DNA of 63,344 nucleotides, the filler included, from Collodictyon triciliatum (lineage: Eukaryota): the NCBI GenBank assembly GCA_043381765.1. It is 7 parts of 7 records of this genome, joined end to end, with 100 filler letters (N's around TTAATTAATTAA, not from the genome) between each part and the next. Parts side by side here need not be neighbours in the genome. Positions count along the whole stretch, not along the records: positions 9,004 to 17,990 come from JBHJMP010003211.1; 6 more parts are not named here. One strand, given 5' to 3'. The notes under the pieces were generated by a model. It saw nothing but the letters and a program-made list of their open reading frames with translations, was not told where the DNA came from and did no database searches. Of this stretch, positions 7,610 through 63,069 are shown piece by piece. How positions within the stretch are numbered: position 1 is the first letter of the stretch; the number at the start of each line of letters is the position of its first letter. Made by a program: the position numbers and the translations under genes.

Positions 7610-8680
7610 TTACAGGTTATGCGGTGATGAATTTGCGCTGTTTGATTCCGAAAGACGCCGCCTGAAGAAAAAAAAGAGAGAGAAAAAGAACAAGTTCACA
7701 ATAAAAACAAACGACTAGGGGAAAATCACATGGGTTATTATTGATTGTCAGTCAGTCTAAACTCACCGTCGTATGACCTCGCCGTTTATCAAGCCAAGAT
7801 TGTCGTAATGCACCTTTTTTTTATTTTATTTTATCATAAATGTTCAAATAAAATAAAATAAAATCAATTTGTCTTCGAAACTAAAACAAAAACTAAAACT
7901 AAGGAGAAAAACAAAACATGGAAGAAATAGTGGAATTCTCTAAACATAGGGACTCACTCTTGTGAATGATGCATAAACGTCACTGTTATTGGCCGTGTCT
8001 GCCTGCTCTTGTTCATTCACATCAGACACAATTTCCTTTAATTCTAAGCTTAAATTCCTTCGACTGGCTGGGTTTGGTCCTTGGTCTGCAATTGTTGGCA
8101 GAATAAGAAAACTTTGTTTGATTTTTTATATTTTGTAAACAATCCGCAGAGCAATCTTTATGCGCTGAATATTGATTGTATTATTTTTTATTTATTTATA
8201 TTTTAATGAGGGAAGATTCCAAGCCCAGATAGAAAGAAAGTTATATCTTAAGTTGTGCAAAAAGAAATAATATTGATATGGGAGAGGTCTGTGTATGAAG
8301 ATATACTAATAAAAAAACAACCTTCAGCCTCAAAATAGCCTGTGTCTTCAGGGTTTGTTGGTTGTGGGACGAAGGGAGGTTCCTGCTCAAGCACTGTGTC
8401 CCATCTCACATCCCTGAAGAACGGATGGTTTTTGATTTCGTCTGGGGCTGCGGTGTTGTAAAGTCAACTTGAACTCCAAAGGAAATAAAAAAAAAGTATA
8501 TTTGTAGGAAAAGTATTAACAAGAACGGAAAACAATTGAAAAGAAAACATGAAAAGTGAAAATATATTAATCGATACATTTCGAACCGAGTCTTTTGGAC
8601 GGGTCAAGAGTCAAGAGGCTAGTTATCAGGTCGGTAGCTTCAAATGAGACATAAACTTCATCCGGCCAAATTAGGTCTTT
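7610..8680 (-). CDS. AGC-family Ser/Thr kinase, C-terminal part (MAST/IRE/Greatwall-like); 5' part lost at contig end
   Basis: Exons DLIWPDEVYVSFEATDLITSLLTLDPSKRLGSK|SPDEIKNHPFFRDVRWDTVLEQEPPFVPQPTNPEDTGYFEAE|..YASFTR|VHYDNLGLIN..: kinase subdomain XI plus AGC tail. Confidence 0.85.
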
Positions 8681-8903
8681 TGTTATTATTGTTATCATAG
8701 TTATCATTAGTAATAGTATTAATAATATTGCTTTTGTTGTTAAAAGAACAGAATAGAGTTTATTTTGCATCATGTCAAATTGACCGATTAAAATATCATC
8801 CAAAAACAAACAAACAAACAAACAAACAAACAAACAAACAAACAAACAAACAAACAAACAAACAAACAAACAAACAAACAAACAAACAAACAAACAAACA
8901 AAC

Positions 8904-9003
8904 NNNNNNNNNNNNNNNNNNNNNNNNNNNNNNNNNNNNNNNNNNNNTTAATTAATTAANNNNNNNNNNNNNNNNNNNNNNNNNNNNNNNNNNNNNNNNN
9001 NNN
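8904..9003. other. Artificial contig spacer (N44-TTAATTAATTAA-N44)
   Basis: Linker with stops in all six frames, flanked by Ns. Confidence 0.98.
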
Positions 9004-9123
9004 TTTTTCTTTTTCTTTTTCTTTTTCTTTTTCTTTTTCTTTTTCTTTTTCTTTTTCTTTTTCTTTTTCTTTTATCCCCTTCTCTTGGGTCTCATTCAGC
9101 CTGTAAATTGATAAACTTCATTA

Positions 9124-9613
9124 CAAGGGTTGAGACGAACTTGGTTTTATCCCTCTCAAGGCACAACACTTTTTAAACAACGAAAGTGTAACCATAAAGA
9201 AAAATCATTTTATTGCACAGACAACCGTCGATTTAAATATGTATTGACAAAAGCAGGAGCTTTGATGAATCCAAGAAAGAACTAGAATAACATAATAGTA
9301 TGATTAGTATATATAATAAGATTAAAATACTAAATAATCTCATTCTATTCTTGTAATCAATTTATATTTTATTTTCCATTTTGTAATATTACCATTAAAA
9401 TTCAAATTACAAACAATCCCTTGCCTTGGCTCAGACAGAACCCACCCTATAAACCTGCCACCAAACACGCATTTCAAAAAAGTATATTATCTTCACTTGC
9501 GACTATAATCATGTTGCTTGGGGCCTATATGTTAACTTTTAGTCGTAATGGCTATACAGCTGTACTTTCGAACTCGCCGAATCGGCTCTCAGCGTTTCGT
9601 CTCAAATCACTTG
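9124..9613. mobile_element. Putative non-autonomous TIR element (Tc1/mariner-like MITE) flanked by TA
   Basis: Left end TA|CAAGGGTTGAGACGAA; right end TTCGTCTCAAATCACTTG|TA (imperfect inverted repeat); no convincing ORF. Confidence 0.5.
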
Positions 9614-9802
9614 TAAAAAAACTTTGTGTGTTTGTTTGTCACAATGCGCATATATTATGAAATTCTCGGTAGATGATTAATTTTACATGAATCGATTATG
9701 CGTAGTTATAATTATTATTATTAAATTGACTGTTTGACTAAAGTTTTATTAAAATTGAAAGCTAGGTTTTTCTCAAGGAAAAAGTAAAACAAAGACTTTC
9801 AG

Positions 9803-11680
9803 ATGAAGAAAAGAAAACGCCTCGAGTCTGATAATCTAAAGTCTGTAAAACCACACTATCGAAATGTGAAAACATATTTAAAGTCGGATGTAAAGAATGC
9901 AGACGACTACGACAAAACCAACGATACGGGTTTATTGTGTCATAATTTGGTTACCAACACTTATCTGTTTGCAAGATGGTATATATTGAAATCGTAACAA
10001 CTCCAATAATCGATGAAAAGTTTTTTTTGTCCTTTAAAGGCAGTCGGAGTGATTTCACAAGATAGACCCGCAATTTAAAAATCCACATATGAGAGATGAC
10101 ATGATGACATTTTATCTCTATGATTTTCGATTCCTTTTGTCCCAAGAAGAACGCTTTCTGTTGGTTGGACTGTCTCATGTATTACCGTAGATGGCGAAGC
10201 AAATGTTAACAGCTTATCATAATAATACTAAGGAGCATTTTGTAAAGAGTTCACTTCACTTTATAAACCAAATAGTTCCTAAAGATGAGGATATTACGGA
10301 AGCTATTAAAAAGGCAGAGTTACGAAAGTTAAAAAAAAGCCATCTTCAAAAAACTCGAAATACAAGAACAATATAAAGAATGGACTATAATGCATTTGCA
10401 TCATATCATTCCCAGCGATATTGTAAATGGTATCGAATATGACGCCAAATTCAATCAAAATAAGTACATTCCATGTATGATTTACATGAATGGCATTTTT
10501 GAAGACATTGGAACCAAACTTTTTCAACCAATCCCTATAAGTACTAACAATATACCATTTCATATTACTCTAGATACTGCATGTTTGATTGGTCTATTAG
10601 TATTGTCTGGAAAAATATTATTGAAGAATATATCAGGATGCAATGAGACCATACGGGATGACTTCTTTGAAATGAAGAAGAGGGTCTTTCATCAAAGAGA
10701 CTACAATTTTAAATACATGATACAAACAGACGGCTTGGCAGTGTCATTATTGTTTGAAAAGAAAGGTATTTCAAATTCAAAATCCAAATATAATCAAACA
10801 ACCCAAGATTATGTTTATATAGATGAACTTTCCGAAGAGCACTTATCTTTATTAGCGAGAAAAAATAGTTGGAGTGGACGCAGGCAAGTTTAATATGGTT
10901 TACATGGTGGATGAGACAGGCAAGAAATTACGTTACACGGCACACCAAACAAGACATGATAGCAAATCTCTTAAAGATCACAAGATACTCTTGCGCGAGA
11001 GAAAAGAAAAATACAAAGCTTTCAGGGATATATGCATGGCAACAGATTTACAAAGTGCTTTTTCTTTTGGGCAAATGTCTTTTGAAGAGAATCAACAGTT
11101 TGAGGCATCAATAGTATCTTTAATCGATTTAGAGATATAACTGATTAAACAAAATTTATGCACGGTTGATTATGAAAAATTTCGAGAATATGCACCTATT
11201 AAATCAAGATAACAGACAGAACTTTCCAGATTTTATGAACAAGTACCTTTTTGAAAGATGAGATGGAGACAGATTGTTAATGCAAAAGGAAGTGAACAAT
11301 TGATTATGGACCGAATTGAAATGACTTTTGGCAAGGACGTTGTACTGGCGTATGGAGACTGGAGCAGAAAATATCCGATGAAACATTTTATGCCTACAAT
11401 CAGAAGAGGATAACGAAAAATACTATCCAAACGTTTTGAAACAGTTAGCGTGAATGAATTTAGAACCTCCAAGATGTGTTGTAACTGAGAAAAAGAACTG
11501 GTTATATGAAACTGAAAGGAAACTCAAAAAAAAAAAAAAAAGGTGCATAGATGTCTCATATGTAAAGGATGCAATCGCTCAGAAAGCAAACAAAGTGTAT
11601 TCTTGACAAGGGACTTTAACAGCGCCCATAATATACTCAATAAAGTTCTTTTAATCCTTCGAAAAATGCCTACCTCTCCT
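9803..11680 (+). pseudogene. Fanzor (eukaryotic TnpB-like RNA-guided RuvC nuclease, Fanzor1-like), frameshifted with premature stops
   Basis: Consecutive fragments: MLTAYHNN, IQTDGLAVSLLF, IVGVDAG (RuvC-I D at 10877), LAYGDWS, VNEFRTSKMCC (RuvC-II E at 11456), CLICKGC zinc ribbon, TRDFNSAHNIL (RuvC-III D at 11612). In-frame TAA at 11411, TGA at 11486 and several frameshifts. Confidence 0.85.
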
Positions 11681-11690
11681 CTAAAAAAAC

Positions 11691-11859
11691 AGGCTGTCGG
11701 GTTCTCTCCTGGCAGCCTTCACCACTACGCGACCTTTGTGAAACAAGCGGTGAGACCTTGGGTACTAGCGCACTAGGTTTACGATTCGAAAGATTGGTAT
11801 GCCCCTTTTAGTATATGTACGAAAATGTTAAGGCATTTCGAGTAATTTCCAGATCAGTG
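11691..11859 (+). ncRNA. Candidate Fanzor omegaRNA scaffold / element right end
   Basis: Stem AGGCTGTCGGG (11691-11701) / CCTGGCAGCCT (11708-11718) with G-U pairs; TCACC/GGTGA enclosing TTGT-GAA-ACAA; CTAG-CGCA-CTAG; all just 3' of RuvC-III. Confidence 0.45.
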
Positions 11860-12271
11860 CGTCGTTGTCTCCTTAATCGGGGCAATCAATTTGTGGCCTT
11901 GTGATTGGCAGCTCCTCATCGCTACCGACCCTCCCATTCCTTGAAACCGATGGAGTCTCTGATCAATCTACCGTTTCCCACACCGGCTCTCCTGTCTGCA
12001 TCCAACCGACCTGGATAACCTGGCAACAACACAGTATTAAGAAAAGTAGAAAAAAGGAAGGAAAAGAAAGGGAAAGGAAGGAAAAGGAAGGGAAAAGAAA
12101 GAAAGAAGGATAAACAAGGAAAAGGAAGGAAAAGGAAAAGGAAGGGAAAAGAAAGAAGGAAAAATAAGGAAAAATAAGGAAAAAAAAGGAAAAAGAAGGC
12201 GGTGGCTGCCCCTGACCTGCCAGAACCGCTCTAAGCAGCACACCTCTCACGCACCCCAACGCAGATAAGTA

Positions 12272-15200
12272 ATGGGCGGCCTTGTCAGCAAACGAGCACC
12301 GGGCGGATCCTCGGTCCACGCGGCAGGGCGACCGACACGAGGGGGCTCCAACGCCTTCCACGGGCACAGCAGCGGCGGTGGCAGCCTCGCAGCAGGGACG
12401 GCACTGGAGGTCCTGCGCACAGCAGACGAGGAACAAGGCCTCGGACACCACCGCAGCATCAGCGACCACACACTGAGCAGCGGAGGCCCTGCAGGGGGAG
12501 CGAGGCGCTCGACGAACGATTTTAGTGATCGTGATCATGACCGTGATCGTGATCATGACCGTGATCGTGATCGTGACCGCCGCGCCAGCGCAGGGATCGG
12601 CTTCATGCCACGCAGCGGCTCACAAGTCCAGCGTGGCAACAACAGCCACAGCCACAGCCACAGCCACAGCCACAGCCACAGCCACAGCCACGCAACGAGC
12701 GAGCAGCGGCGCAACAGCGTCGGAGCGCGGTCGGCCCCGCCCGGGAGTCCGTTTCTGGAAGGGCTTCCGACGCCGCTTTCGCCGGCCATGGGCGCAGACG
12801 CCGGGGCGCCGCTCCATGCTAGCAGCGGCATGATCGAGATGGCCACGGTCGGGTCGTCTGCCCAGCGCCGCAGTTCGGCGGCCGACAAGATCAAATCCTT
12901 CTTTCCCATCCGCTTCAGCCTGCGCAACCATGGGATTTGGGCGGAGCTGCTCGAGACGCTGCATGCAGACTTGACCGACCAAATCCGCACCTTCGACGTG
13001 GACTGGGGCCCTAAGGTTGCAGAGAATGTTGCCCGCCTCGTGGCCCGGGCTTTTCGGCAGCCGTCTGTGGTTGGAGACACGCTCTCCATCTCCTTCCATG
13101 ACATGCGCCTTGGCGACCAGGTTGGTGTCGGCCGCAGTTTGCATCTATTCTCCCAGCAATGGAACCCCTCACGACTCACATGTATATATATATATATATA
13201 TTTATTTGCATCGCCGTCTTTAGATTATCGACGCCTTCTTCCAAGTGCTGGTTGCGCATGAGACTTTTGGCCGAGTCGGCTCCGTCTGTCTCCGCAACAA
13301 CTACCTTTCTGCGCTCTGCATCGAAAGCGCCGTTCATCTGCTCCAGTTCTCCACGTACCTCAACTCTCTGGATTTGAGCTGTAATCCGCTCGGAGATGAC
13401 GGGGTGGTTCGCTTGTCAAATGCTCTCAGGTCCAACATAATTCTGCAACATCTCAACTTGTCGTACGTTGCTGCTACAGATCGTGCTGCTAGTGAGCTTG
13501 CTGAGTTGATTCTAGCGAATAAGGCCCTCCGCAACCTGGATTTGAGCGGAAATGCGTTCCAGAAAGAGGGTGTAACAAACATTCTCAACGCTGCAACTGC
13601 AAACATGAATCTAGTGTCTCTTTCTTTGCACGCCAACCCTGGGCTGGATAGAATGAGCTTCCATCACCTCGAAGAAGTGATATCTCGAAATGTCAGAATT
13701 GGACCCCCAACCTCGCCATCAATCACTCCAATGACTGGGCCCTTAAGTGGGTCGGGGTCTCCTTCTTTATCTTCTGCTTTCTCCACTTCGATTCAAGGGA
13801 GCCCCTCACTGCCATCAGCATCCACCTTTTCCGCTTACGAATGGTTCTGCCACGAGAAAGTTACCCCAACAGTTTGCTGCTCTTCGTTTCGAGATGCACC
13901 GGAGATCTTTACCACTCTCACAAACGCTACCATCACAACTCTACCTCCTGAACATAATGCTCCAATCCCGCCTCCAGAGCGCAAAGGCAGTGTTTTCTCT
14001 CAGAAAGTAATATTTTCCCTTCATTTACATCATCGTCATCATGTCTACAAGGATGCATGCTAAAGTCTTGATATTAAAATTTTCATTTCGTTTCTTGTTT
14101 TATTGCTAAACTTTAAGTTAAGTATATATAAAAAAAAAAAACATATATCGGCAAGTGTGACCATGAATTTTTTTTTCTTGTTTGGTTAGGAGGTCTCTCG
14201 CAGCATTGATGTTCTCTTTGCTACACCTGAAACAATTTCCTTCATGAATTCCCTTCCATTTAACAAAACTTGGAAGAGGGAGGGTCGATTCAATATAGGA
14301 TGTGCTGATACCATCGGACGAAGGTCATCCATGGAAGATGTCATGGTAAATACAATATAGTTTCAAATTAACTACTTAAATCTGAACGGGATAAAATAAA
14401 TTATACATTTTAACTTACAGAAAGCCTTTTCACCAAAAAAAAAAAAAAGAAAATAAAAAAAAGATAAAAATAAAAAAAAAAAAAAAAAAGAAAAAAAAAT
14501 TACAGGTCATATGCGAAAACTTTCAAAATCAGAAGGGAAACTATATTATGGCCTTATTTGACGGACATGGCGGACCAGATGCAGCCAACTATGCAGCTGA
14601 GCAAATCGTTCAAACAATGGCATATATTTACGATACTGAAGGTTCAAAATTAGACCATATCGCTATTATCAGAAAGGTAACAATGATGGCATCGTATTTT
14701 GAACTCTATCCCAGATAATATATGATGTATCCTCTTTCTTGTGTCAAACCAGAAAAGAAATTTTTGAATTAATTTCATGAAACAATAAAAAAAAAAAAAA
14801 TCAATCCAGACATTTATTGAGCTGTACGAATCGATGCAAGGATATCTCTTTTGTGGAACAACTGCAGCCACGTTATCTATTCTGGGAGACAAGTTATATG
14901 TGGCATCTGCTGGTGATTCTAGAATTGTCCTCTGTCGTGGAGGTATGTTGTTTATATTTCTAATTATTTTATGCATGAACTCTGAGTCTTGCTTTTTTTT
15001 TTTTTAAAAAAAAAAAATTGCCGTACGCTTTCACTTACTCATCAACAATATGGGGACAATTGACTCAATATTCATAAAACCTGCTCTCCATTCAAATTTT
15101 TACAAATACTATGTAATAGGAGAGGCAATACGTATGTCTCGTGACCACAAACCAACCCTCCCAGACGAAAGAAAGAGGATAACGGATGAAGGTGGATTTA

Positions 15201-17990: not shown

Positions 17991-18090
17991 NNNNNNNNNN
18001 NNNNNNNNNNNNNNNNNNNNNNNNNNNNNNNNNNTTAATTAATTAANNNNNNNNNNNNNNNNNNNNNNNNNNNNNNNNNNNNNNNNNNNN
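17991..18090. other. Artificial contig spacer
   Basis: N44-TTAATTAATTAA-N44. Confidence 0.98.
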
Positions 18091-18292: not shown

Positions 18293-19846
18293 ATGAAGTA
18301 CGGCGTGGCATCCTCGGATAGCCTACCAGAGTTTACCAGTTCCAACTATGAAACCGCAGCCCCATATGCCAGAGGCCTGAATGAAGATGATCACATCACG
18401 GAAGAAACCTCTCTGTTACCCAAGGATGAGGCCGCCCCAAAGCCCCTTGCCTCAACGTCCTCGTCCATCTTCAACTTGACAAACACCACTGTGGGTGCCG
18501 GAGTTCTCACCATCCCTTACGCACTTAACAAGACAGGTCTCTAATCCATACAAACAAAAAACCATCCTAATTGTTCGATTGCCAACCCTGTTTTCATGGG
18601 GAATGTTGATGGCGGATCAAAAATAGGTATTTTTCTGGGCGTCGGCTTGATGCTTCTGGTCTGCTTCATGGCAGGCACTTGCCACTTGCTGCTGATCGAT
18701 TTGGCCAACAAAACCGGCTGTCGTACCTATCGTGAATTGGCTGTGTATACATTTGGTCCGAGAGCTGGGAGATACATGGACTCTATCATTATCTTTTACA
18801 CCACCGGCACATTAATCGCCTATCCTATTATTATCGGTAGGCTCAACCTGACGTTTTTTTTTTCCATTCGTGAAAGAATTGTACAGGAAACAATACCCAA
18901 TTCGTCCGCATTTTGGTTTGAGTATTACTGACATTCAATTTATCTAATAGGTGGCAACTTGCCTGATGTCTTCCGTGAAGTAGTGGAAGGATGGTTTGGT
19001 GGGGATTGGCCATTCACTGAGAACGAAGGACGTGCGTTGCTTATGTGCCTTGTTATGTTTATGGTGATTGTTCCCATTTCCATGCTACCGAATCTTGATG
19101 GGCTAAAGCATACCAGTTTGATGGCTATTCTCTGCATCTTTTACCTCATGATTGTCATCCTGTATACATATGGAGCTGGAACAACAGAGAGCGAGGAAAA
19201 CTCAGTTGTTTATGTCAATGGGGAATTTGAAATGTTCCTTGCCTTCCCACTTATATCAGTGTCGTTTACGGCTCACTATAACGTTCTTCGCATCTACTAC
19301 GAGTACGAAAATCGTAGCCGAGAGCGCATGAAGCGTGTGATTATCTTTTCCATGATGATTATCTTGACCCTTTACTTGCTGATTGGTGTCCCTGGATACT
19401 TGGCTTTCCGAGCAGACGTCGAAGATGACATTTTAAGCAACTTGGATGAGACAAAAGAATGGAACGTGTTGGCCAAACTCGGCCTTGTTCTCACCATCAT
19501 CTTTTCTTATCCTCTTGTTGTCTTTGCCACTCGCAGTTCGCTCCATAGCTTGATTTACCCAGACCAACCCCAGCAATTGAAGCGTCTCAGAATCTTGACG
19601 ATCTGCCTGGCTTCGGTCTCACTACTGGTCGCCATCTTCGTCCCGGACATCAGTGTTGTCTTTTCGTTCACGGGTTCGTCCTTTGGTGTGCTTATTGTCT
19701 ACATCCTTCCTTCGTACATGACTCTGCGTGTCTCTGGCAGGGATTGGAAAGACCCCTTGAACCGCAAGCCTTTGGCAATATTCGTTGCTGGCATTCTGAT
19801 AGGCTTCCTGGCGTTCACTGTGGCCATCTACAACGTTGCTTCTTAA
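18293..19846 (+). CDS. Amino acid transporter, SLC38/AAAP (Aa_trans) family (3 exons)
   Basis: SSIFNLTNTTVGAGVLTIPYAL, LKHTSL, AFPLISVSFTAHYNVLRIYYE, GYLAF, FSYPLV; many hydrophobic segments; acidic dileucine EETSLL near the N-terminus. Confidence 0.93.
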
Positions 19847-25485: not shown

Positions 25486-27070
25486 TTACATGCGGTCGAT
25501 GACGGCCTCGATGGTCTTGTACTTGAGAATCAGCTCGTAATTGCGGTTGACGTCGGTGAAGCCCATCGTGCAGAGAGTCTGAGCCTTTGCCCAAGCCTCT
25601 CTATTATAGTTCTGTATACAAATTCATTTCAGCAACAACAACACCAACTAGAGGAAGGAGAAATTAAAAATTATAATAAAATCCAAGGGAAAGTATGTAA
25701 GGGAAAATACACAATGAGGGTAGAAAACTCTATAGGGAAACTCACCGCAGGTATTTGAGGAGACGGTTGCTGGGCACGGGGCTGCGCGAAGGGAGCAGTG
25801 ACGTTCACTTTGAGCTCGAGACCTGCTCCAAAGAATTCGCCAGAGGGAGCCATCAAGCGGTAGAGGAGGGTGTAGGAGCCTGGAGTGCTGGGTGCGGTGA
25901 ATGAAACATTCACTTGCGTGGTGGCGCCAGGCTCTGCTCCGCTGATTGCAATCGTGTTGGGTGCAGCCTTCACCTCACTATCGTTCGTTCGCTTCAAATT
26001 AAGAGGCGTAGGCCAAGAAATAGTTCCTGTATTCCTGATTTCAAAGGATTGCTGATACGTCCCACCCGGAGCCACTCTCTCACTTCCCCCCAGAAGGTTT
26101 ATCGATGCATTCAAATTCTGCAGGCTATATATCATTTACAAGTTGCTCAAAATAAGCTAAATGATTGTAATATTCGCCTTATCTTATGCAAATAATTCAG
26201 ATGTGTAAGTGTACTGATTGGTCCAATCTGAAACCGAGGATGTTAATCCGATCAGTTAAAAGGTATTGATAAGACGTAATGGCAAAACTTACAATGGAAC
26301 ACTTGAGGCGGTATTCGATGCCATCGCGGGCTCATTCAAAGGTGAGAACATCGAAACATACCCAAACCCTTCTCGGGTGATGGCTTCTGTTGATGTAGAA
26401 GGAGGTAAAGTGTTTCTTGGAGTTGACATGGACGGGGATGCCGCAGGCTTTGCTTGAGGTGCATCAGTCGTAATGCTCACGCTGGCAACTGCACTCGACG
26501 AGTTGGAGGGAACAGCCCAGGAGGCCTGAAACACATTTTCCGCATCTGCACGCGCAACACATCTACTCCCTACTCTCACTGGGGTCACAATTGCATTGAA
26601 GGTGTGGCTTGGGTCATGGAAGCGATCAGTTCCTTGGACTTTCAGACAAGCTTCGCACAGGTCATAGTCCGGGCAAACAGCACATTTATGGCGGATGCCA
26701 ACAATGGGATAGCTCCCACAGTTATCACAGGTTACGCCATAATGAACTATGGAGATGGTCTGTGTCAGTCAGGTTAAATGATATGTGTGATACTAAGACG
26801 CTACGAGAATAAAGATATTGGGATGGAGTGGTTGTTATTTACCTTTCAGGGCCTCATTTGGTTCGTTATCGATTGCTTCCATCCTGCGGACAAACTATAT
26901 AGGGAAGGGAGATATGTGAGAATAGCTTGCACTAAGGCAACTATGAACCCAATAGAGGAAAGAAGAGGCATGAGAACGACATGTACCAGCTGAATGAGGC
27001 AGCGAATATTTTTGGTTAATTTTAGGAAAGGTATTCGCAGGGCGATAGAAAAGACCCACCTCAACAAGGG
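25486..27070 (-). CDS. NBR1-like selective autophagy receptor (ZZ zinc finger, FW domain, UBA); 5' truncated
   Basis: VHYGVTCDNCGSYPIVGIRHKCAVCPDYDLCEAC (ZZ); VAPGGTYQQSFEIRNTGTISWP..GEFFG (FW); LCTMGFTDVNRNYELILKYKTIEAVIDRM* (UBA). Confidence 0.85.
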
Positions 27071-27170
27071 NNNNNNNNNNNNNNNNNNNNNNNNNNNNNN
27101 NNNNNNNNNNNNNNTTAATTAATTAANNNNNNNNNNNNNNNNNNNNNNNNNNNNNNNNNNNNNNNNNNNN
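27071..27170. other. Artificial contig spacer
   Basis: N44-TTAATTAATTAA-N44. Confidence 0.98.
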
Positions 27171-36144: not shown

Positions 36145-36244
36145 NNNNNNNNNNNNNNNNNNNNNNNNNNNNNNNNNNNNNNNNNNNNTTAATTAATTAA
36201 NNNNNNNNNNNNNNNNNNNNNNNNNNNNNNNNNNNNNNNNNNNN
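36145..36244. other. Artificial contig spacer
   Basis: N44-TTAATTAATTAA-N44. Confidence 0.98.
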
Positions 36245-45213: not shown

Positions 45214-45313
45214 NNNNNNNNNNNNNNNNNNNNNNNNNNNNNNNNNNNNNNNNNNNNTTAATTAATTAANNNNNNNNNNNNNNNNNNNNNNNNNNNNNNN
45301 NNNNNNNNNNNNN
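45214..45313. other. Artificial contig spacer
   Basis: N44-TTAATTAATTAA-N44. Confidence 0.98.
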
Positions 45314-48155
45314 GCTCTTGTTGTAAACGACTTGCTCGACCCCGTGCAAAAATACTGTCGCTCAGACAGACTTGCAGGCGGCTTCCTTGCACGGGTCTTC
45401 CTGGACTTACGTGCAACTCGGGGGTTTTTACTGCGTCAGTGTTGGAACCAGAAGAGCTGACTGCAACTTGCGAAGCCTTCGACGGGTCTCGGTTCGTGTT
45501 TTCCATCAGGTGTGGGCATATGTTGACAATACCAGAGTCAGCGCACACACCAACCAGGCGAGACAGGTAATTAACAATGCTAATTATTATTGACAATGAA
45601 TTCCAGTATTGTGACTGAAATTTCTAAACTAATTCACCTCAATTCTAGTAATTATTTTGATATCCAGAAATGTTAGTCATCTATTTCTATTTTAAGAGCA
45701 GTCGTATCTATTTCCTTTTAAACATCAGAAAAGCACACGCGCCATTTAATGGTGCTGCCGCGCGTGTATAATCAGAAACAAGGGCAATTCCATGCACAGC
45801 GAGGCAAGCAAAGCCACCAGCATTAATGGTCGAGAAAGAACATAGAAGAGGCGCGACCTCTGCCGCCAAGAAGGAAGTTTTCATTACGATGAAAGAGAGA
45901 GAGCTACTCACGCAAACATCGACTCATAATGATATCCAATAATCTACAACATGATGGTTCCTAGCATGTGGGATCCACAGACCTTTCCACTCGCCGCCCC
46001 ACTTGTCATTGTTTCTCACTCAACACCAACTATTTACGACCAGAGACTGGAAAATCTGCACCAATTTGATTCTTGGCTAGCTGTGTTGATCTATCTTCCC
46101 TCACTTATCTCGTGAGGATTGCCCAAAGTGCATATAGAAAGAGGAAAAAGACTTTCCAATACTCAAATTTGTAGCTGCTTCGCTTCACTCTTCCTAACCC
46201 AATCATTATAAAAATGTGTATTACTTGTAACGACAACCTATGACGTATCAAAGCTCGCTCGTCTCATGAAAATATACACTCATATATTATTCAATAAGCA
46301 AACAAGTTGCTCCTTTTAATGAAAATACAACAATCAAATTCTGCCCAATATGGGCTCTGATCACCCTGAAGGGCTTTATATCTAGACTAATATATGTTTT
46401 AGCCGCCTCGACCATCCTATTCAAGTATTCTAAATCGCCACATTCGAACGAGGAAGTCCATTTAATTTTAAAAATGCACAACTCTATGAAACCACTGTAT
46501 CTCTCATCACTTAGTTGCATCACAACTGCGATAACTGACGTTTCCACATAAGTAGATGATGAACTTATCTCTATACTCAAAATCTTATCATGGCAAGGAG
46601 TGTAGTGGATGAAGTGATGGTCAGCTCATTTAATTAATGATTAAATATTTAACGCATGCATACAAAAGAGTTTATAAATTGAAATTATGAGAAATTTGAG
46701 AGAACAATTCGGTTAAATTAAATGATAAGCCCATATTGGGAGCACCATATTGCCGAAACTTGACCACGGGATATATCTTTCTATTCATAGCATCGTTAAT
46801 GCATTCTTTCGTAATAACATTTCAAGTAGGGGGTTGGCCTTTTCAATTGCATCATGCTCCACTATTCCCAACCATACGGTGCATAGCGCTCCTGGGTCAT
46901 AGCTATCCTTTCTATAGAATGTAACATAATATAATAACAACTACATAACATGCAAAGATCTCCTGAATTTTCTGATACTATCTTCTTTCTCTTGGTTAAT
47001 GGAGTATCAAGGGGGATTGATTTCACAGCTCCTATGGTAAAATATATCAATAGGAATGTGATCGATGTATATATTGAATAGACAGGCTTTTGAATGTAAT
47101 CTTCATTTTTGGTATAAATATTGCGTTTGTTCAATTGTGAATCACAACATGCAATTTAAGATGCAATTGTATTTATACTACCACGAATTTTTTTCAACCA
47201 CTTTATATCTTAAAAACAACATTTGTAAACCATTTACGTCACGAAGTTGCAATGAACTCTTAATGTCAAGTGGAATATAATTTCTCTTTTCCAATATCGA
47301 AAATATGAGCCTAATGTAAATGCAGATACAAAAATTGGTCACCTTCTCATTTATACGATATATATATATGATAGCGCATATATAATTATCAACGTATGGC
47401 AAAGAATTACGATGATTTGTCTAGTAAACTATAAATAATCTGCAAATTTTTATTACGATGGCTGCATGAAATACCTAATGCAGCCTATTTTATGGAATAG
47501 AGAAATATTATAGTCAAGGCCTGATTTATCTCTAATAATATCATATATCATTCATTGAGTCAAATGTTTATAGATCAAGCAACCAAAATCTATCACTAGG
47601 TCTTATTTTTGGATTCAACCAAGGTGGGAGTTGAAATTCTCGAGGATCCGATGGAGATAGAAGGGGTGAGCTCTTGTACAATCATGAACCTAGAACCCTC
47701 AATAGTCTATTGTAGATAAGTAATGTTGAAAACACTTTTTTGGGGTTCTGTAATGTAAAATCTTTTTGAACTGGTCATTTGGGTACCCTTCAAATACTTG
47801 CATAAATTAGGACAGTATTTGTTCCGATGTATTGGAGCAAAAACAGCCTTCCATGGATTTGTGCTGCATAGAATGTATCTTTTCTAGGTTTGTACAGCTA
47901 TGACAATCAATCATAAGAAAAAAAGTAATTAGAATTATCTTAATTTTTCGTGGATCTTTCATTCTCTTCTTATACGCTGAATAACTAATGAAGATATGCC
48001 AAAAATTATAGGGAGCTTATCAAACATACTGATGGTAACTGAATAGATTTAGAAAAACGGAACATATGTAAAATTAATCCAAGCTAAAATAATTTGTTGA
48101 TAACTTTTTAGGATGCTTTGAATAATATTATTATAGATAACACAATAAATTTCAG

Positions 48156-51100
48156 GTAATTCTGAATGGCACGTTCCTGAATCAAACAAATCAACATCTT
48201 GTGACAACCATGGCATTATATTACAAGCAGGAATTATCATCCCCCCTAATGTGAACCCCAACGTGCTCAATCACATCATATGCGACGATCAACTCCTTAG
48301 CCTTGCGTATCGCAGGAATCACCTGTATGAACTGTGTCCAACACTAAGAGGAGGTGGAAACTCCTCTTCCAGATCGGCTCGATCAAATACCGCTGCTCCT
48401 CCCCATACATCGGGAGCTCAAGTAGAAACAACAGATGAGATTTTAGAAATTTTGTCCAAAATAAACGATGCTTATCGCTCAGCAGCTAACTCATCACCGG
48501 ATTCAAATCACCAATTCTTATCACTACAGCTGATGCAAGTCTTAACATATCAGATACTAAAAAGTGCCAACAAAGAAGAGGACATGAGGGTTGTTGAAAA
48601 GTTAGCATCTCTTCATATCTCAATTGTAGAGAAGTATGGCCAAAATATCCGTGAACAGGCTATTGTTGCAGAAAAACAAGCAGCCATACAGAGAGATACC
48701 ATTCGGGAGCAAGCTTCCTTAATTGAAAAGCAAAGTGAATCAAACCAAAGACTGATTCAGGGCCTTATAGACCAGGTCTCACGATTGCCAGTATCTCAGC
48801 AAACTCCGCAAGTGATTGATTCATTGGTGCGCGTTATTTCACCACAAGTAACACCATCAAGCTCTAGCCAAACAAATGCAGCCATATTTTCAACCGCGCT
48901 GCAATCGCAACTTCATGATAATCTTGTCACCAATGCAAGTCAACAATGCACCGTTAATATTACTCCTACTACTCATTTTTTTCCAACAAATCCTGTTGCT
49001 GTTCAACCAAAACCTCACGATGCTTCGCAAAACCCACCTGAGCAAGTAACAGCACCGACTACACTGGCATCAAATCCGTTCAGAGAAAACCAACTGAAAA
49101 CACAGTCCGGTAGCAGTGCGACAGAGACTCCACAAAGTGCTGGTAATACAAATCTTCAGGCAAATGCAGGAACAAGTAGTCCAACAAATCTCCCAGGAGA
49201 TACTCACGCAAATGCTTCCGAGCTTGCCAAAGCCATATTTGAGCAACGAGACCAACAATTTGGAAAGAATACCGATACAAAAAGAGCTCTTCGCATAATC
49301 AAGCTATTCATGAAGGAACAAACTGCCGATGAGAAGAGCTTGGATGAACTCACTGCACTGGCCCCAGCAGGATCCAAACTCATTTCAGAGAAGCTGATAA
49401 CTGCTATTGGCACAATGATGGATAAAAAAATGGAAAAGCTGGACCGCCTGCTAGATGCTTTGAATATCGTTGTGGGGAACACATTGAAGGAGGATTTCGA
49501 CCACACGCTGCTAGCTCAAGTCCTAGATATTCTGATAGACCGTGTCGGAACTCTCTTTGCTTCGGACGAGGCTTTATGTCAAAGGATATTGGACAGTCTG
49601 ATTTCCATTCTAAATTCGCTCCATCTTTCTGGCGCATCAGGAATTCCTGAAGAAAAATACAAAGCATACAAAGAGACATTTGGACAGAGCTGGATTGACA
49701 AGAAAACTGAGACTCACGGGGAAGAAATCGAAAACAAAATGCAGATTCAATATGTTCAGGCCAAGAAATCTTTGTTTTGTGAGCTACTGAAGCATATTGG
49801 CGATGGTCAGAGTTCTGTCGTGAAGAATCTGAAAATAGCTGGCAGAGTTGGACTCGGTCTATTCAACGCTGCATCTGCTGCTTTCTCTTTCGACATCAGT
49901 GGCACTCTGGCATCATTGCAGGAGGTTGCGACCGCTGTTGGAGAAATCGACATCAAAAAGGATTGGTTTACATTCTATCAAAAATTTCGCGTCAGTTTAT
50001 TCGTCGGTGCCGATGAGGCGAAAAAATCGTGGGATTCTCAATTTTCAGGAAAGAAAGACGAAGTTGGAGAAACCCTGGCATTCCTAATTATTGATACAAT
50101 TTATGAATGCTATCTCCACAAACACAATAGCTCGGAGGGACAAAAAGTCTACAAATTAATCGAGTATATCACACGTCATGAAAAATGGCTGAAAAGTGAG
50201 GTTATTAACCGATTTGTGGAATCAAAAAAGCAAGAAATGGCAGAATATAAGCCAAAAGAGTCAAAATTACCTACTGCACTTTTTGAAAAAGCTGGTAAAG
50301 ACGAAAGAACAATTCAAGACATCATCGAGAACATTAAGGAGGAGACCATTCGAAATGAAGATTTCAATAGTCGTTTTAACACATATATTCCCGGTCAAGC
50401 CGAAAGAATTGCTGAGAAAGGAAAGAAGTTTGATGCCCAAGAACGCATCCTGAATTTCATCACATCTGGAAATGAAAAAGTGCTGCTCATACTTGGCGAT
50501 TCTGGCTCTGGGAAATCATTGTTACAGCAGTTTATTGTGCGATTGCTTTGGAAAAACTATGAATATGGAAAGTCGCATATTCCATTGTATGTTGCGCTTA
50601 CTTCATTGGAAAAGCCCAGAGAAAACGCCATCGAAGAACTGCTTCTTTCTGAGAGTAAAAATAGCTTCTACATCCCAGACTCTGATTTTCGAGTCGAACA
50701 TGTTAAAGAATTGAAAAAGATGAAATTCGTATTTTTCCTGGATGGTTATGATGAGATTGAAGATAGTTGTACATCTTTCTACAAATCAAATATGCTTGAA
50801 GAATGGCCCAACTGCAAGTTTGTGATTGGATGCCGCAAGCAGTTTTTGGACAAAAAATCTCAGTACCAATCACTTTTTGCACCCAAAGCTAGTCATGGAT
50901 ACTCTCTGGATGAAATATATCTGAGACCTTTTGAAACTAAGCAAAGGCTTGATTACTTCAACAAGTATGCTGAGAGAAATCCTATTGAAGGATGGGAAAA
51001 AGGAGAAAAGTATGAGGAAGAGTTGAAGAAAATCAAGGAGCTTGATGAATTGACTGTCACTCCGTTTATGATTTTCATGGCAGCCACCACCCTGCCGTCC

Positions 51101-54100
51101 ATACTGAAGGAAAGAGTTGAGTCGAAGTCAAATTTTAATGCAAAAATTCTGCGAACAGACTTTTTGGACAAGTTTTCGAGGAGATGGTTCGAACGCGAAA
51201 GAGAAAAGCTTGAAAATAATTTGTCATTGAAACAAAAAATGCCAGAGGATTTGGATAGCCTTTTGGGAAGAAAATGCAAAAAAATTGCAAAGTTGATGCA
51301 CGAAATAGAACGAAAACCTTCCCTTCAATATTGCTACGTCGAAGGTGAATTACCAACTAACCCACAATACGGAGAATTTTTCAATCCAAATCATGGCCAT
51401 ACCCTCGATGATGGGAAAACGCCTTCTTATTCCATATTTGTGCTGCGATGTGCACCCATTAAGAAATCTAGTGCCACGACGTATGAGTTCTTCCACAAAT
51501 CGCTCTACGAATTCTTTGCTGCTGAGTACATCAAAGATGAAATCAATAGTGTCGATGCGGGAAATGAAGCTTCTGTCCAACCATCAACTGAAGCTCAAAA
51601 TGTTGCAACTTTCTCTGAATCCGCGAATTCTATGCCTGAAAAATCTGATGCGAAATCACCAAGTTTCAAGCTTTTCAATGCTGTTCATTCTGTGATGAAA
51701 TCGAAAGTGAAGACGAATGTTCTGGATAAAAAGCTTGAGCCTGCCATTCTGCTCAACCTGAGTGAAAAAGTGAACAAAGACAGTGCCTACAAAGATAATC
51801 TCTTTTCAATCATTGAGCAGTCCAAGGCAGATGCAAGCAAAGCGCAAGCTGCGTCGAATGCCATCACAATTCTGAACTATGCTGACGTTTCATTCAGTGG
51901 CGTGGATTTCAGAGGGATTCAAATTCCAAATGCCGACATGTCACAGTCTGTTGCTGATGGTGCTGACTTCACAGGCGCCAACTTGGAGGGTGTTTTGTTC
52001 TATAATGCGTGCATTTCAAACTGTGTTTTTGACAATGCGATTATGAAAGGCGTTAATTTTGGTCGCTTGCCTTTGTTTTTGGGTCATACAAAAGCTATCA
52101 ATAGTGTTTGCAGTATTCAAGGACCGAATGGTGAAAACTGGTTGGCTTCTGGAAGTTATGATAAAACAATACGTATTTGGGATGTAGCCACAGGGAACCA
52201 AATCAAAACATTAGAAGGGCACACAGAGCCAGTCAATAGTGTTTGCAGTGTTCAAGGACCAAATGGTGAAAAATGGCTGGCTTCTGGAAGTAGTTATAAT
52301 ACAATATGTATTTGGGATGTAGCCACAGGAAACCAAATCAAAACATTAAAAGGTCATACAAGCGGTGTCAATAGTGTTTGCAGTATTCAAGGACCGAATG
52401 GTGAAAACTGGTTGGCTTCTGGAAGTAGTGGAGATGAAACAATACGTATTTGGGATGTAGCCACAGGAAACCAAATCAAAACATTAGAAGGTCATACATG
52501 GTCTGTCAATAGTGTTTGCAGTATTCAAGGACCGAATGGTGAAAAGTGGCTGGCTTCTGGAAGTGGTGATAAAACAATACGTATTTGGGATGTAGCCTCA
52601 GGAAACCAAATCAAAACATTAGAAGGACATACAGGAGCTGTCAATAGTGTTTGCGGCATTCAAGGGCCGAATGGCGAAAAGTGGCTGGCTTCTGGAAGTT
52701 GGGATAAAACAATACGTATTTGGGATGTAGCCACAGGAAACCAAATCAAAACATTAGAAGGTCATACAAGTGTTGTCAATAGTGTTTGCAGTATTCAAGG
52801 ACCGAATGGTGAAAGTTGGTTGGCTTCTGGAATTTGGGATAGCACGATACGTATTTGGGATGTAGCCACAGGAAACCAAGTCAAAACATTAGGAGGTCAT
52901 ACAAGAAGTGTCTATGGTGTTTGCAGCATTCAAGGACCGAATGGTGAAAAGTGGCTGGCTTCTGGAAGTGGTGATGAAACAATACGCATTTGGAATGTAG
53001 ACACAGGAAACCAAATACACAGCCTGAAAAAATCAGAAGCGACGTACAATGAAAAGAGCCAATTGGTCATGAATGATAAACCAGAAGTCATCGCAGTATT
53101 CAATAGTACATGTGATGCGATGAATGTGATTGATACGAGCAGAATAATGAACGTGAGAACTGTTCGGATTATCGGTCCAAGAACACTGGAAGCTGCGAAT
53201 ACTCGTATCAACAGAGCTGAATTGGGTGTAATGAACAAGAAACTATTCCTGCAAGAAGGTGCTGCTTCCTTTGATGCGGACTTTGTTGCATATTGTGAGC
53301 AGGGAAAGTTCACCACGTCCCAGGCTGAAATGATGGCTGAATGCTATATTAATGGATGGAGTGTTGAAAAGGACATCGAGAAAGCTATCGAGTGGCTAAG
53401 AAAGGCTGAAAATTTTGATAAATTGAGGCAATTCGCACAACAATGCTCAAAGAAGGCATTCAATGTTTTGAAAGAAATGGCTGAAATGAAATATGAATAT
53501 GGCGGATACATATATACACAGGCTGTCTCTATTGTTGCTGAATGCTATGAGAATGGATGGGGCGTTGAGAAGGATACCGAGAAAGCTATCGAGTGGCTTG
53601 GAACTGCTGAAAATTTTGACAAATTGAAGCAACTCGCACAACAAGACTCAAAGGAGGCATTCAGCGTTTTGAAAGAAATGGCTGAAATGAAGAATAAATA
53701 TCGCGGATACAAATATCCACAGGCCGTTTCTATTGTTGCTGAATGCTATGAGAATGGATGGGGCGTTGAGAAGGACACCGAGAAAGCTATCGAGTGGCTA
53801 AGAAAGGCTGAAAGCTTTGACAAATTGAAGCAACTTGCACAACAAGGCTCAAAGGAGGCATTCAATGTTTTGAAAGAAATGGGTGAAATGAAAACATGGG
53901 ATGAAAAATACAAATATCCACAGGCTATTTCTATTGTTGCTGAATGCTACGAGAATGGATGGGGCGTTGAGAAGGACATCGAGAAAGCTGCTGAATGGAA
54001 TCTATTGGCAATAAAAGCAGCTGAAAACTTTGACAAACTGAAGGAACTCGCACAACAAGGCTCAAAGGAGGCATTCAATGTTTTGAAAGAAATGGGTGAA

Positions 54101-54280
54101 ATCGTAGACGAGGATTATGGTGAATACAAATATCCACAGGCTGTTTCTATTGTTGCTGAATGCTATGAGAATGGATGGGGTGTTGAGAAGGACATCGAGA
54201 AAGCTGCTGAATGGAATCTATTGGCAATAAAAGCAGCTGAAAACTTTGACAAACTGAAGGAACTCGCACAACAAGGCTCA
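48156..54280 (+). CDS. NLR-like STAND NTPase: leader ending LRGG, helical region, NACHT, pentapeptide repeats, 7 WD40 repeats, Sel1-like repeats; 3' truncated, upstream exons likely
   Basis: Uninterrupted >2000-codon frame opening at candidate acceptor TTCAG (48155); Walker A GDSGSGKS (50495-50518), Walker B FVFFLDGYDE, TPFM, YEFFHKSLYEFFAA, pentapeptide ADFTGANLEG, WD40 52082-53020, SLR-like AECYENGWGVEKD. Confidence 0.92.
52082..53020 (+). repeat. Seven near-identical 135-bp WD40-coding tandem repeats
   Basis: Unit GHTxxVNSVCSIQGPNGExWLASGSxDxTIRIWDVATGNQIKTLE (45 aa; one 46-aa copy). Confidence 0.95.
53336..54280 (+). repeat. At least five near-identical 201/216-bp Sel1-like-coding tandem repeats
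   Basis: GCTGAATGC anchor at 53336, 53537, 53738, 53939 and 54155; the contig breaks inside the array. Confidence 0.9.
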
Positions 54281-54380
54281 NNNNNNNNNNNNNNNNNNNN
54301 NNNNNNNNNNNNNNNNNNNNNNNNTTAATTAATTAANNNNNNNNNNNNNNNNNNNNNNNNNNNNNNNNNNNNNNNNNNNN
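54281..54380. other. Artificial contig spacer
   Basis: N44-TTAATTAATTAA-N44. Confidence 0.98.
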
Positions 54381-60514: not shown

Positions 60515-62870
60515 TTACTTTCCTTCCATGGGGAGCCTATTTGGAGCCACGTTTCCTAGAGTATGGTCGATTTTCTCGACAGGATATGGCAATCTTTGGG
60601 AGCATTTCGAAGATGTGGATGACATCACAAGTGACTCGCTTCCTTGTGCTGGGTTGTAATCAAGTTGCTCCAGCAAATGCTCGACATCTTGTGCACAATT
60701 ATGAATACTGGAGATGGTGCAGAGCTCGTTTGAGCTTTTGAATGCGCTGATGTTTGCTGTGTTGTGAGCTTGTGGTTTTGGTGTGTAGCCAACAGTGTCG
60801 GGTGAATATGCAGGACTGGCCTCTTGAGTGTACAGTTCTGGGGCGCATATGCCAAAGAGGGGTGGCTCTGCAAAGACAGACTCAATCTCTGTTTCCAAGT
60901 CATCCTCCAAGATACCAATACCGTGCGGTTTAATTGCTGGCGGGCTCGGCGAATCTGTAATCTCGACATGCTTACTAAATGAATGTCCTGTGTGTTCTGC
61001 TGGTCGACTTTGAAAGGAAGGGGATACTTGCTGTCTGTATGTCTCTAGGTACTCTGGGCAAGGGGCTGACACATGAGATGATAATTTCGAGTCGATGCCA
61101 AGCGTCTCTGTTATTGTGATTGGACCTTCATCCACTTGGCCTGATATGATTTTGTTTGGTGATCTGCCTTCACTGTCGCGAATCTCTTGTATATCTCTGA
61201 ATGGCGCTGGAATCGCTGCTGTTGAGCCAACAGGGTTGCTTTTGAGCACTGTAAAGTCCTTTGAGTTTTCAAGGAGCTCTGCAAGAAAGTCCTCAAATTC
61301 TTGCAGCTGGCTGTCCTGCGATTCGTAGCATGTGCCTTGAGGATGGTGAGTTGTTTTTGACAGCCTCTCTTTCGAAACCATTAAAGAGTCATTCGAAAAG
61401 TCTAATGAGCACAAGATAATCAATTTATCGTTTAAATGTAAAACCAAGTAGATAAAAATTAATTTAATGATTATAAAAAGAATAAATTTTAAAGGTGGGG
61501 GATTCTGGTATGTGCAGCCCAACAAAAAGAAAATTGACTTGATTATGAATTACTCTTCAAATCTGTGAAATAAAACTATTGGTAGACCTTTTTGCTGACC
61601 TGTTGCGAGCTCGCTGATGGCATGTAAAGCATAATCGGGTACGCTGCAGGTACCTTGCCTCTGGTTGATATTGGCAAAGTCGTTTGTAACCGCACGAGAA
61701 TAATTAATGTCTTGTGTTTGAGCATGTGGTGTATGGTAGGCATCAGAAGCTGAGTTTTCACATTCCGGTTGAATAGGGAAGTGTGAACGATAAGAAGGAT
61801 TGTGTTCATGCCAGAATATTCGAGAGACATTCGCAGCTTCGGGATTTGTATTATTCGAGTCTGAACCTTCTCCGAGCTTCCTTTTCCTTGCGCGCAGATA
61901 GTCCAACCCGGCTGCATCTGATTAACAAGAAGGAGCAGCGAAAGAAAAAAAAAACCATTTTATTGCCATGTCGCATGAGTGAGTGCGAGGCATGAATGAA
62001 AAAAGAAAAAAAAGAGAGACAGTTTGTGTTGGGGATAGAAGAAAAATAATTCAAGAGAGGAGAAGAAGAAAGGGAAGAGTTGACCGCGTATTTTATGGCT
62101 AATTATGCATGCCAAAGACATGACACAAGTGTAGGACACGTACCTGGAAGGAGCAGAAGACGCAGGAAGTGGAGAATGCGGTCGACTCTGCGGTTGGTGT
62201 CAGCGTGGCGGCGTCTCCCTTCGTGGATGTCATCTGCAACGGCCTGAGCGAGCTGCCGAGTCGCACAGCTTTCCTGTCGCAGACGCACAAGCTCCTGGGT
62301 GAGGATGTCGCGGTCTCTACGCAGGCAGGCGATTTCGTCTGTGGGGCCGAAGTTTCCTATTTCCACGGGCCGCTGGGCTGCTGCGTCGGTTGGCATGGGC
62401 ATGGGCACTGACATGGACATTGACAGCTGAGTCTGGGCCTGGGTGGGATGCGGCCTGCGACGGGCAATGGCGCCAAGCAGGTCTGGGCGGCTGCGCACAA
62501 AGGCCGGGTGTGTGAATTCCCAGCGGTCCGGGTCGCGCTTGTGGAAGCCGTATGTGTTGAGCTGCCGCACAAAGGACGAGAAGTTGCTGTGCTTGAAGAA
62601 CTTTGGCAGTACATCGCGCGAAAACTCCAGCGGCTGATGCACGACAAAACTGTGCCCTGTGGCGTCCCACGAGACGGTCTCGCCCGCGGCATTCACAATC
62701 CCGTAGAGTTTGCTCACAAACGGCGCAATCGACGTCTCCTTCCATATCCGCCCCGAAACCGCCCCTCTTTGCTCGCCTTTCGCTCGTGTCTCTGTTGCGC
62801 AGTCGTCTCTCGTGTCGCGTGGTTGGGCCGTTGCGCGTCCTGTGCTCCACGCTAGTGGGTCTGACTGCAT
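60515..62870 (-). CDS. Heat shock transcription factor (3 exons)
   Basis: DBD APFVSKLY..SWDATGHSFVV..LPKFFKHSNFSSFVRQLNTYGFHK..WEFTHPAF; HR-A/B heptads; NLS-like RARKRKL in exon 2; acidic S/P-rich tail. Confidence 0.92.
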
Positions 62871-62934
62871 CGCTCTGTTCTCTTTATTAGTAATGCCTCT
62901 TGTTTGTTTCTGATACCTCTCCTCTCTCTCTCTC

Positions 62935-63027
62935 TCTCCTCTGTTCTCTTCTGTTCTCTTCTGTTCTCTTCTGTTCTCTTCTGTTCTCTTCTGTTCTCTT
63001 CTGTTCTCTTCTGTTCTCTTCTGTTCT
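62935..63027. repeat. Tandem repeat (CTGTTCTCTT)n upstream of HSF
   Basis: About nine copies of a 10-mer. Confidence 0.9.
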
Positions 63028-63069
63028 TGTCATCATTTATATATTAATATTAATATATAAATGATGACA
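63028..63069. mobile_element. Perfect 42-bp palindrome, second copy of the TG..CA mini-element
   Basis: TGTCATCATTTATATATTAAT-ATTAATATATAAATGATGACA; same termini as 29453-29498. Confidence 0.65.

Follow-up and report, generated by a model that had tools for sequence, protein, structure and literature searches.

A decayed Fanzor1 gene copy, very probably left by a mobile element, in the genome of Collodictyon triciliatum

Within a 63,344-nucleotide stretch of DNA from the eukaryote Collodictyon triciliatum (assembly GCA_043381765.1; filler included; hereafter the window), a full-length and colinear relic of a gene for a Fanzor1 RNA-guided nuclease occupies positions 9803-11779 on the + strand, running from an ATG (MKKRKR...) to a TAG. 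The Fanzor family was widely catalogued in 2023. The relic is very probably a dead gene copy left by a mobile element in a eukaryotic nuclear genome, a reading carried by its homology and family assignment, by the positions of its motifs and of its breaks, and by the many related copies that are observed elsewhere. It was delimited by three-frame reading, tblastn, frameshift-aware alignment and matches to solved structures. An earlier reading of the same DNA (hereafter the original prediction) had described a decayed, intronless and frameshifted Fanzor nuclease ending at 11680; measured to that position the relic comprises ~626 codons, and measured to the TAG at 11777-11779 it comprises ~659 codons. 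The TAG is probably the original stop codon of the gene, as the tail encoded in the last frame equals the tail of the relatives in length.

The family assignment is consistent across searches of different kinds. When the C-terminal half of the conceptual protein (P0001, with X at stops) was compared with the PDB using phmmer, it matched the Fanzor1 proteins of Parasitella parasitica (E 7.3e-11) and Spizellomyces punctatus (E 8.4e-8), and two upstream fragments gave weak colinear Fanzor1 matches (E 0.04-0.33) to the corresponding earlier parts of the chains. An exhaustive HMMER search of 1.84 billion representatives returned 1530 relatives of the relic at E <= 0.001, the top one of which, P0004, is an intact protein of 634 residues (E 2e-63, 54% identity over the matched part). 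In the reverse direction, tblastn with P0004 against the window recovered four colinear segments in three frames, with a joint E of 5e-104 and covering the whole length, and a frameshift-aware alignment of the relic with P0004 has 272 identities in 591 aligned residues (46%). A profile made from 15 full-length relatives had three PDB matches at E <= 0.01, all of them solved Fanzor1 proteins and all matched end to end (E 1e-78, 4e-77 and 1e-64). Among Fanzor2, TnpB and Cas12 chains in the PDB none was matched at E <= 0.01 by the family profile, and none at E <= 10 by the window fragment. The Fanzor identity proposed in the original prediction is thus upheld, the read-through protein having its TnpB/Fanzor RuvC match in Fanzor1. 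General Pfam models are nearly blind to this Fanzor1 family: the TnpB-derived zinc-ribbon model PF07282 gave an E of 0.11 for the window, 0.009 for P0004 and 1.4e-6 for another relative, P0009. The protein collection labels the relatives with PF26935, a newer family; the Pfam scan performed here gave no PF26935.

All of the motifs listed in the original prediction are present on the + strand and in the order it gave. The frame opens with a basic stretch, MKKRKR (9803-9820), a putative nuclear localisation signal to judge by its composition and by the MKRKK with which P0004 begins; the acquisition of nuclear localisation signals is among the features described for Fanzors (PMC10530073). In the WED/REC half, IQTDGLAV (10720-10743) aligns with LETDGVGV of the Parasitella Fanzor1, the Asp of its 'TDG' (D319) being the same in all 15 relatives of the alignment used for column numbering (A3). 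The RuvC-I motif GVDAGK (10871-10888; catalytic Asp codon 10877-10879) aligns with IDPNK of the Spizellomyces punctatus protein, SpuFz1 (8gkh), its Asp lying opposite D383 in a column (D372) that is invariant in the 15 relatives. At the RuvC-II position, YGDWS (11351-11365) aligns with MGDWS of SpuFz1, and both G496 and W498 of the site are invariant in A3. We take the Gly of YGDWS to occupy the position of the canonical RuvC-II Glu, partly by reference to TnpB motifs. The alternative catalytic Glu (codon 11456-11458) lies in NEFRTSK (11453-11473), which aligns with LDEYKTS of SpuFz1; it stands opposite E541, in a column (E530) invariant in the 15 relatives, and is 34 residues downstream of the YGDWS Gly in P0001. 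RuvC-III is represented by RDFNSAHNI (11609-11635; catalytic Asp codon 11612-11614), which aligns with RDLNSA of P0004, its Asp falling in an invariant column (D581) and, via the profile, opposite the Arg-Asp of SpuFz1 that contains D606.

The arrangement of YGDWS followed by the NEF Glu fits the rearranged RuvC-II described for Fanzors, in which an inert Gly or Pro replaces the canonical Glu and an alternative Glu is found ~45 residues further on (PMC10530073). The active site reported for SpuFz1 comprises D383, N385, E541 and D606 (PMC10432273). The claim that three RuvC acidic residues are still readable therefore stands for the Asp of GVDAG, the Glu of NEF and the Asp of RDF, but the Asp of GDWS is not catalytic.

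The zinc ribbon (TNB/NUC; 11474-11572) is in place as a motif, as predicted, but it is damaged. It consists of MCCN followed by a stop (11474-11488) and RCLICKGC (11549-11572); three of the four zinc-finger Cys codons are kept (11480-82, 11552-54 and 11561-63), and the second ligand position (11486-11488) has become TGA. The corresponding Cys columns (C537, C540, C564 and C567) vary hardly at all among the 15 relatives, and frame changes at ~11501 and 11542 fall between the two Cys pairs of the relic. The four-cysteine (CCCC) zinc finger is thus a relic here and not a working finger.

The decay extends over the whole gene. On the + strand, one frame is read without internal break over 9803-9997, another briefly and likewise without break over about 10000-10065, a third, with one TAG inside, over 10053-10376, the second without break over 10333-10893, and the first, with in-frame stops inside, over 10856-11779. 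The colinear alignment contains no intron-sized gap, in agreement with the description of the gene as intronless, and it is indeed frameshifted, with changes near 9992/10002, 10063, 10338, 10864, 11501 and 11542. There are at least six frame changes, and six nonsense codons are identified by alignment to relatives: TAG at 10188, TAA at 11138, 11210 and 11411, and TGA at 11252 and 11486. In this count P0004 served as the reference for the first 60% of the relic and two closer but partial relatives, P0273 and P0278, for the rest. Placement of the N-terminal frame changes (9992-10864), made by alignment to P0004, is good to a few bases and is weakest at 9992-10063. Two additional 'stops' in the straight reading are by-products of the pair of frame changes at 11501 and 11542.

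Three of the frame changes lie in or beside homopolymers (A8 at 10333, within which the change near 10338 falls, A6 at 10860 and A16 at 11526), which are error-prone in some sequencing methods, and this is the point in favour of a functional gene whose apparent breaks are sequencing errors, small introns, programmed frameshifts or the product of a variant genetic code. Such a gene is nevertheless extremely improbable. TAA, TAG and TGA all occur in frame, so that no single codon reassignment suffices, and long open reading frames (ORFs) elsewhere in the window are listed under the standard code. The six nonsense codons are substitutions, not insertions or deletions, and one of them destroys a nearly invariant zinc-ligand Cys; the three other frame changes sit away from homopolymers, and at four of the nonsense sites the copies in other sequencing runs are unlike the window. 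With all three stop codons in frame and frame changes outside homopolymers, neither recoding nor read errors can rescue the frame. An open frame for the whole protein is absent from the window copy, which cannot make a nuclease.

That the relic belongs to a multi-copy family is indicated by public sequencing data, contigs of four runs having been placed on the window at >= 85% likeness. Run X1 (organism A) provided 297 contigs, 33 of them at 99+% likeness, 57 at 95-99%, 111 at 90-95% and 96 under 90%; run X7, from organism B in the same study, provided 267 (12, 55, 109 and 91 in the same classes). Two metagenomes contributed less: seven contigs from freshwater (X2; one at 99+%, one at 95-99%, one at 90-95% and four under 90%) and 16 from lake water (X5; none at 99+% or at 95-99%, six at 90-95% and ten under 90%). 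Jointly the X1 and X7 contigs span 9803-11734, with up to 19 different X1 contigs over a single position, and over 10000-10140 one X2 piece matches the window at every base apart from a single gap. The locus itself was not recovered from any run: none reaches half of the sampled words, the highest fraction being 0.09, and no RNA run is listed as containing it. Hundreds of contigs that are 85-99% like the relic in two runs imply that it is a member of a multi-copy family.

The same contigs bear on the history of the breaks. At the nonsense positions 10188, 11138, 11252 and 11411 every placed X1 and X7 contig has a sense codon, from which it follows that those four breaks are confined to the window copy or to copies closely akin to it. 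Compared with X1 contigs, the window differs by 176 transitions and 132 transversions, with no bias of the kind left by repeat-induced point mutation (86 C>T or G>A changes against 90 T>C or A>G changes). The copy most probably decayed neutrally, through six substitutions to nonsense codons, a minimum of six frame changes and the loss of one zinc ligand.

The relic can be placed in a subfamily by an insertion of ~35-40 codons after RuvC-I (approximate limits 11000-11135, + strand), as defined by alignments of P0004 with P0273, P0006 and P0092. The insertion is common to the relic, P0273, P0006 and P0092, whereas the giant-virus relatives are without it. P0273, which reads the insertion in an open frame, is 64% identical to the relic (141/219), and P0278, the closest relative beyond the insertion, is 73% identical (105/144) and begins downstream of it; both look intact over the part covered and both come from metagenome contigs of 1.2-1.4 kb. 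Three further ORF fragments, P0050, P0061 and P0138, are 70-79% identical to the relic, partly in what are the wrong frames of the window, and because they follow out-of-frame readings they are best understood as ORFs called on other decayed copies. Together with the X1 and X7 contigs (297 and 267) these decayed fragments support the proposal that this lineage hosts, or hosted, a Fanzor family. No closer relative of P0273 with DNA context was found above 59% identity among the best 80 of 419 metagenome and the best 80 of 171 viral relatives. Insertion-bearing members were not encountered on any contig recognised as giant-viral in these two scans; in the viral collection, the top 80 among 171 relatives have 45-50% identity to P0273.

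The connection with mobile elements comes from the relatives. The closest full-length intact ones (46% identity) are encoded on giant-virus contigs of 57-254 kb (IMG/VR), and metagenome and viral scans located many additional relatives on contigs of up to 276 kb. The element that carries them is 3.3 kb long with 33-nucleotide inverted ends, L001 sharing 3354 aligned bases at 73.8% identity with L002-L004, and its cargo is Fanzor1 together with, in some copies, an upstream, divergent transposase of the IS630/Tc1-mariner type (DDE_3 plus a helix-turn-helix domain). The genes on either side of the element in L001-L004, for ribonucleotide reductase small chain, mRNA capping enzyme and MutS, are those of giant viruses. 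The metagenome scan yielded 419 more stretches encoding relatives, the best 80 of which were analysed together with five viral loci, 85 in all. In 67 of these loci the frame is open over 594 codons or more; with these, and with the intact-looking partial members P0273 and P0278 of the window's own subfamily, the consensus suggested in the original prediction is not required as a route to such an enzyme. A transposase lies upstream in 21 of the 85 loci, and among the 51 loci whose upstream sequence reaches 1500 nucleotides or more it is found in 18. Since many copies of the relatives lack a transposase, one acting in trans is the likely means of movement for the window's family, by analogy with those copies.

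Elements and decayed families of this sort have precedents. In the 2013 description of the Fanzor family (Bao and Jurka 2013, PMC3627910), Tc1/mariner elements from giant viruses and protists (PGv-1, PUl-1, PUl-4 and SPu-1) carry Fanzor1, other copies have these ends but Fanzor alone between them, and eukaryote genomes contain multi-copy Fanzor1 families in decay, e.g. in Cyanidioschyzon about 150 Fanzor1 copies with about 80% identity to the consensus. In Chlamydomonas an endogenous giant virus is described with Fanzor1 and IS630-Tc1-mariner elements, and a Fanzor fragment elsewhere in the host genome is part of the same account (10.1101/2024.09.03.611062).

The 3' tail of the relic and the first bases beyond its frame (11680-11850, + strand) are the expected site of the omega-RNA scaffold and of the right end of the element. 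In the relatives, the last ~100 bases of the gene can form two nested stems of nine pairs, eight of which have compensatory changes (61 distinct sequences), a candidate for the guide-RNA scaffold that would be expected to overlap the end of a Fanzor ORF and, in that case, the scaffold of a very abundant environmental Fanzor1 family. Conserved non-coding DNA of the relatives stops at a median of 47-83 nucleotides past the stop codon. In the giant-virus Fanzor1 clade (L001-L165) the nested stems are followed by an invariant TTGATTTTAC word, and the element ends with ...GGTGTAAA 47-83 nucleotides past the stop. A few words of the relatives' 3' structure, TTCACC and AGACC, are visible in the window, by inspection only. 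A single-sequence fold of 11560-12035 is not more stable than shuffles (z 0.57), and no Rfam RNA was found, either at permissive thresholds over 8000-14000 or at gathering scores over the whole window. The cover by contigs of the four runs thins over 11735-11803 and ceases over 11804-11850, the uncovered part being no evidence on the right end.

Several points weigh against the view that the relic was left by a mobile element. No inverted ends and no target-site duplication were found around the relic. No transposase relic was found either: tblastn of two viral DDE_3 transposases against the window gave chance matches only (E >= 0.6). The contig begins at 9004, 800 bases upstream of the relic, so that the left side cannot be judged. 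A covariance model of the relatives' 3' structure (R1) had no match at 11600-11900, its best matches being elsewhere (E 0.12-8); this miss is weak evidence, as R1 derives from a sister clade 45-59% identical in protein. The kind of the X1 and X7 runs (RNA or DNA) is a guess, and the depth summed over their contigs is not a copy number. The transposon status of the relic consequently rests on its relatives and on copy number, no ends or transposase having been found at the locus.

Candidate element ends were also sought among repeats and by comparison with the viral end. Repeats near the relic gave low-complexity matches only, (TTTTTC)n at 9004-9073 against a purine-rich tract at 12042-12199, plus short chance pairs, and these were rejected. 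The viral 33-nucleotide end has no DNA match in the window at word size 7, and AAATGTT-AAGG at ~11825, which is partly like that end, was treated as chance.

The relic's contig (window 9004-17990) bears on whether the gene might have arrived as viral cargo. Microsatellites flank the relic. Downstream, a G+C-rich gene at 12272-14063 (+) encodes a protein beginning MGGLVSK and containing LRR_6 repeats, its start lying ~490 bases past the end of the relic, and a PP2C exon also lies downstream on the same contig; a search with this exon gave no close relative with a name, the best match being 59% identical over 112 residues. The MGGLVSK protein has His-Ser and Asp-Arg dipeptide runs, and its start is of a putative myristoylation type. 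The relic has a G+C content of 34.6%, compared with 56.6% for the eukaryote-type genes of this contig.

That A+T-rich composition beside a host gene at 56.6% G+C, the presence of the closest full-length intact relatives on giant-virus contigs, and the relationship described between Fanzor fragments on a Chlamydomonas host chromosome and endogenous-giant-virus copies (10.1101/2024.09.03.611062) would be consistent with the relic being what remains of a giant virus integrated in the host (an endogenous giant viral element), with Fanzor as cargo that decayed along with the other parts of the insert, and not a copy of a transposon family multiplied within the host genome. This origin is unlikely. 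A+T-rich spacers are general in the window, and no viral hallmark gene was found in the 9-kb contig (three of its ORFs gave LRR_6, PP2C and no family with Pfam, with the left end open). The hundreds of diverged X1 and X7 contigs fit repeat amplification better than one viral insert, and no insertion-bearing subfamily member lies on a viral contig among the best 80 of the 171 viral relatives. A gene copy left by a mobile element remains the favoured explanation.

A more specific history may be suggested tentatively, as a possibility to which less than even weight is given: the insertion may mark a host-resident Fanzor1 lineage, sister to the mariner-borne clade of giant viruses, which has recently been amplified in at least two organisms (A and B), is also present in lake metagenomes, and has intact natural members. 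If such intact natural copies exist, they would represent, on the host side, an active equivalent of the viral elements and would directly exemplify virus-host traffic, and they would be a source of new natural RNA-guided nucleases.

That the window's family was RNA-guided, which transposase was its partner and how it moved we infer by analogy with characterised Fanzor1 systems. The intact ancestor of the relic would have encoded a protein of ~650 residues that cleaves both strands of DNA under RNA guidance and is built from a WED/REC half, a RuvC domain in split form and a zinc finger of the CCCC type. Its RuvC centre presumably followed the rewired Fanzor scheme, in which Gly stands where RuvC-II canonically has its Glu and NEF supplies the catalytic Glu. 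As in characterised Fanzor1 proteins, the enzyme may have bound an RNA from the 3' end of its own element and cut guide-paired DNA beside a short target-adjacent motif, so enabling the element to persist or to home. The gene itself would have ridden a cut-and-paste element, most likely of the Tc1/mariner kind.

Fanzor1 genes, their multi-copy decay and their sharing between giant viruses and hosts are already in print (PMC3627910, PMC10432273, PMC10530073 and 10.1101/2024.09.03.611062), and a dead single copy matters little alone. The locus is useful as an annotation, which avoids the calling of several small genes, and it points to an apparently abundant Fanzor1 subfamily with an additional insertion. 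A complete genome could yield the intact members of this subfamily, their carriers and their relation to giant viruses.

The remainder of the window consists of separate contigs joined by linkers of 44 N, TTAATTAATTAA and 44 N (8904-9003, 17991-18090, 27071-27170, 36145-36244, 45214-45313 and 54281-54380), so that genes on different pieces are not genomic neighbours. The spacing of the linkers is 9087, 9080, 9074, 9069 and 9067, i.e. the pieces slowly shrink, as would follow from an ordering of the contigs by length, and several contigs end in microsatellites. On one piece a single frame of >2040 codons (48149-54280, +), ended by the end of the contig, encodes at least seven WD40 repeats (~residues 1300-1650) followed by Sel1 repeats; the WD40 blades are near-identical to one another, as are the Sel1 units, and the long N-terminal part has no family among the matches listed. 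Genes of ordinary eukaryotic kind on other contigs encode an HSF-type DNA-binding protein (62103-63029, -), a ZZ zinc-finger protein (26289-26768, -) and an amino-acid transporter (18932-19846, +), and for none of the three is there a close relative with a name.

Compared with known systems, the locus differs from the published Fanzor1 Tc1/mariner elements (PMC3627910; 10.1101/2024.09.03.611062) in that no ends, target duplication or transposase were found at the relic, whereas its relatives in L001-L004 share the architecture described for those elements, i.e. 33-nucleotide ends, a DDE_3 transposase, Fanzor1 and location on giant-virus contigs. Fanzor-only copies are likewise common among the relatives, the comparison being one of architecture.

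At the level of the protein, the solved Fanzor1 enzymes, SpuFz1 (8gkh), Parasitella parasitica Fz1 (9cf0) and Guillardia theta Fz1 (9cer), have the same domain order as the relic and are of the same length class. The likeness extends to the RuvC-I Asp, the Gly that replaces the canonical RuvC-II Glu, the alternative Glu in (D/N)E(F/Y)xTS, the CCCC positions and the RuvC-III Arg-Asp. The window copy differs from the solved enzymes in being a pseudogene whose sequence likeness to them is distant (E 7e-11 at best for a fragment), and its subfamily in having 35-40 additional residues after RuvC-I. With Fanzor2 and the bacterial TnpB proteins of IS200/IS605 and IS607 the likeness is more general, comprising the RuvC and zinc-ribbon core and RNA guidance in general; by contrast, the relic's family, at ~650 residues, has the long N-terminal half that is typical of Fanzor1.

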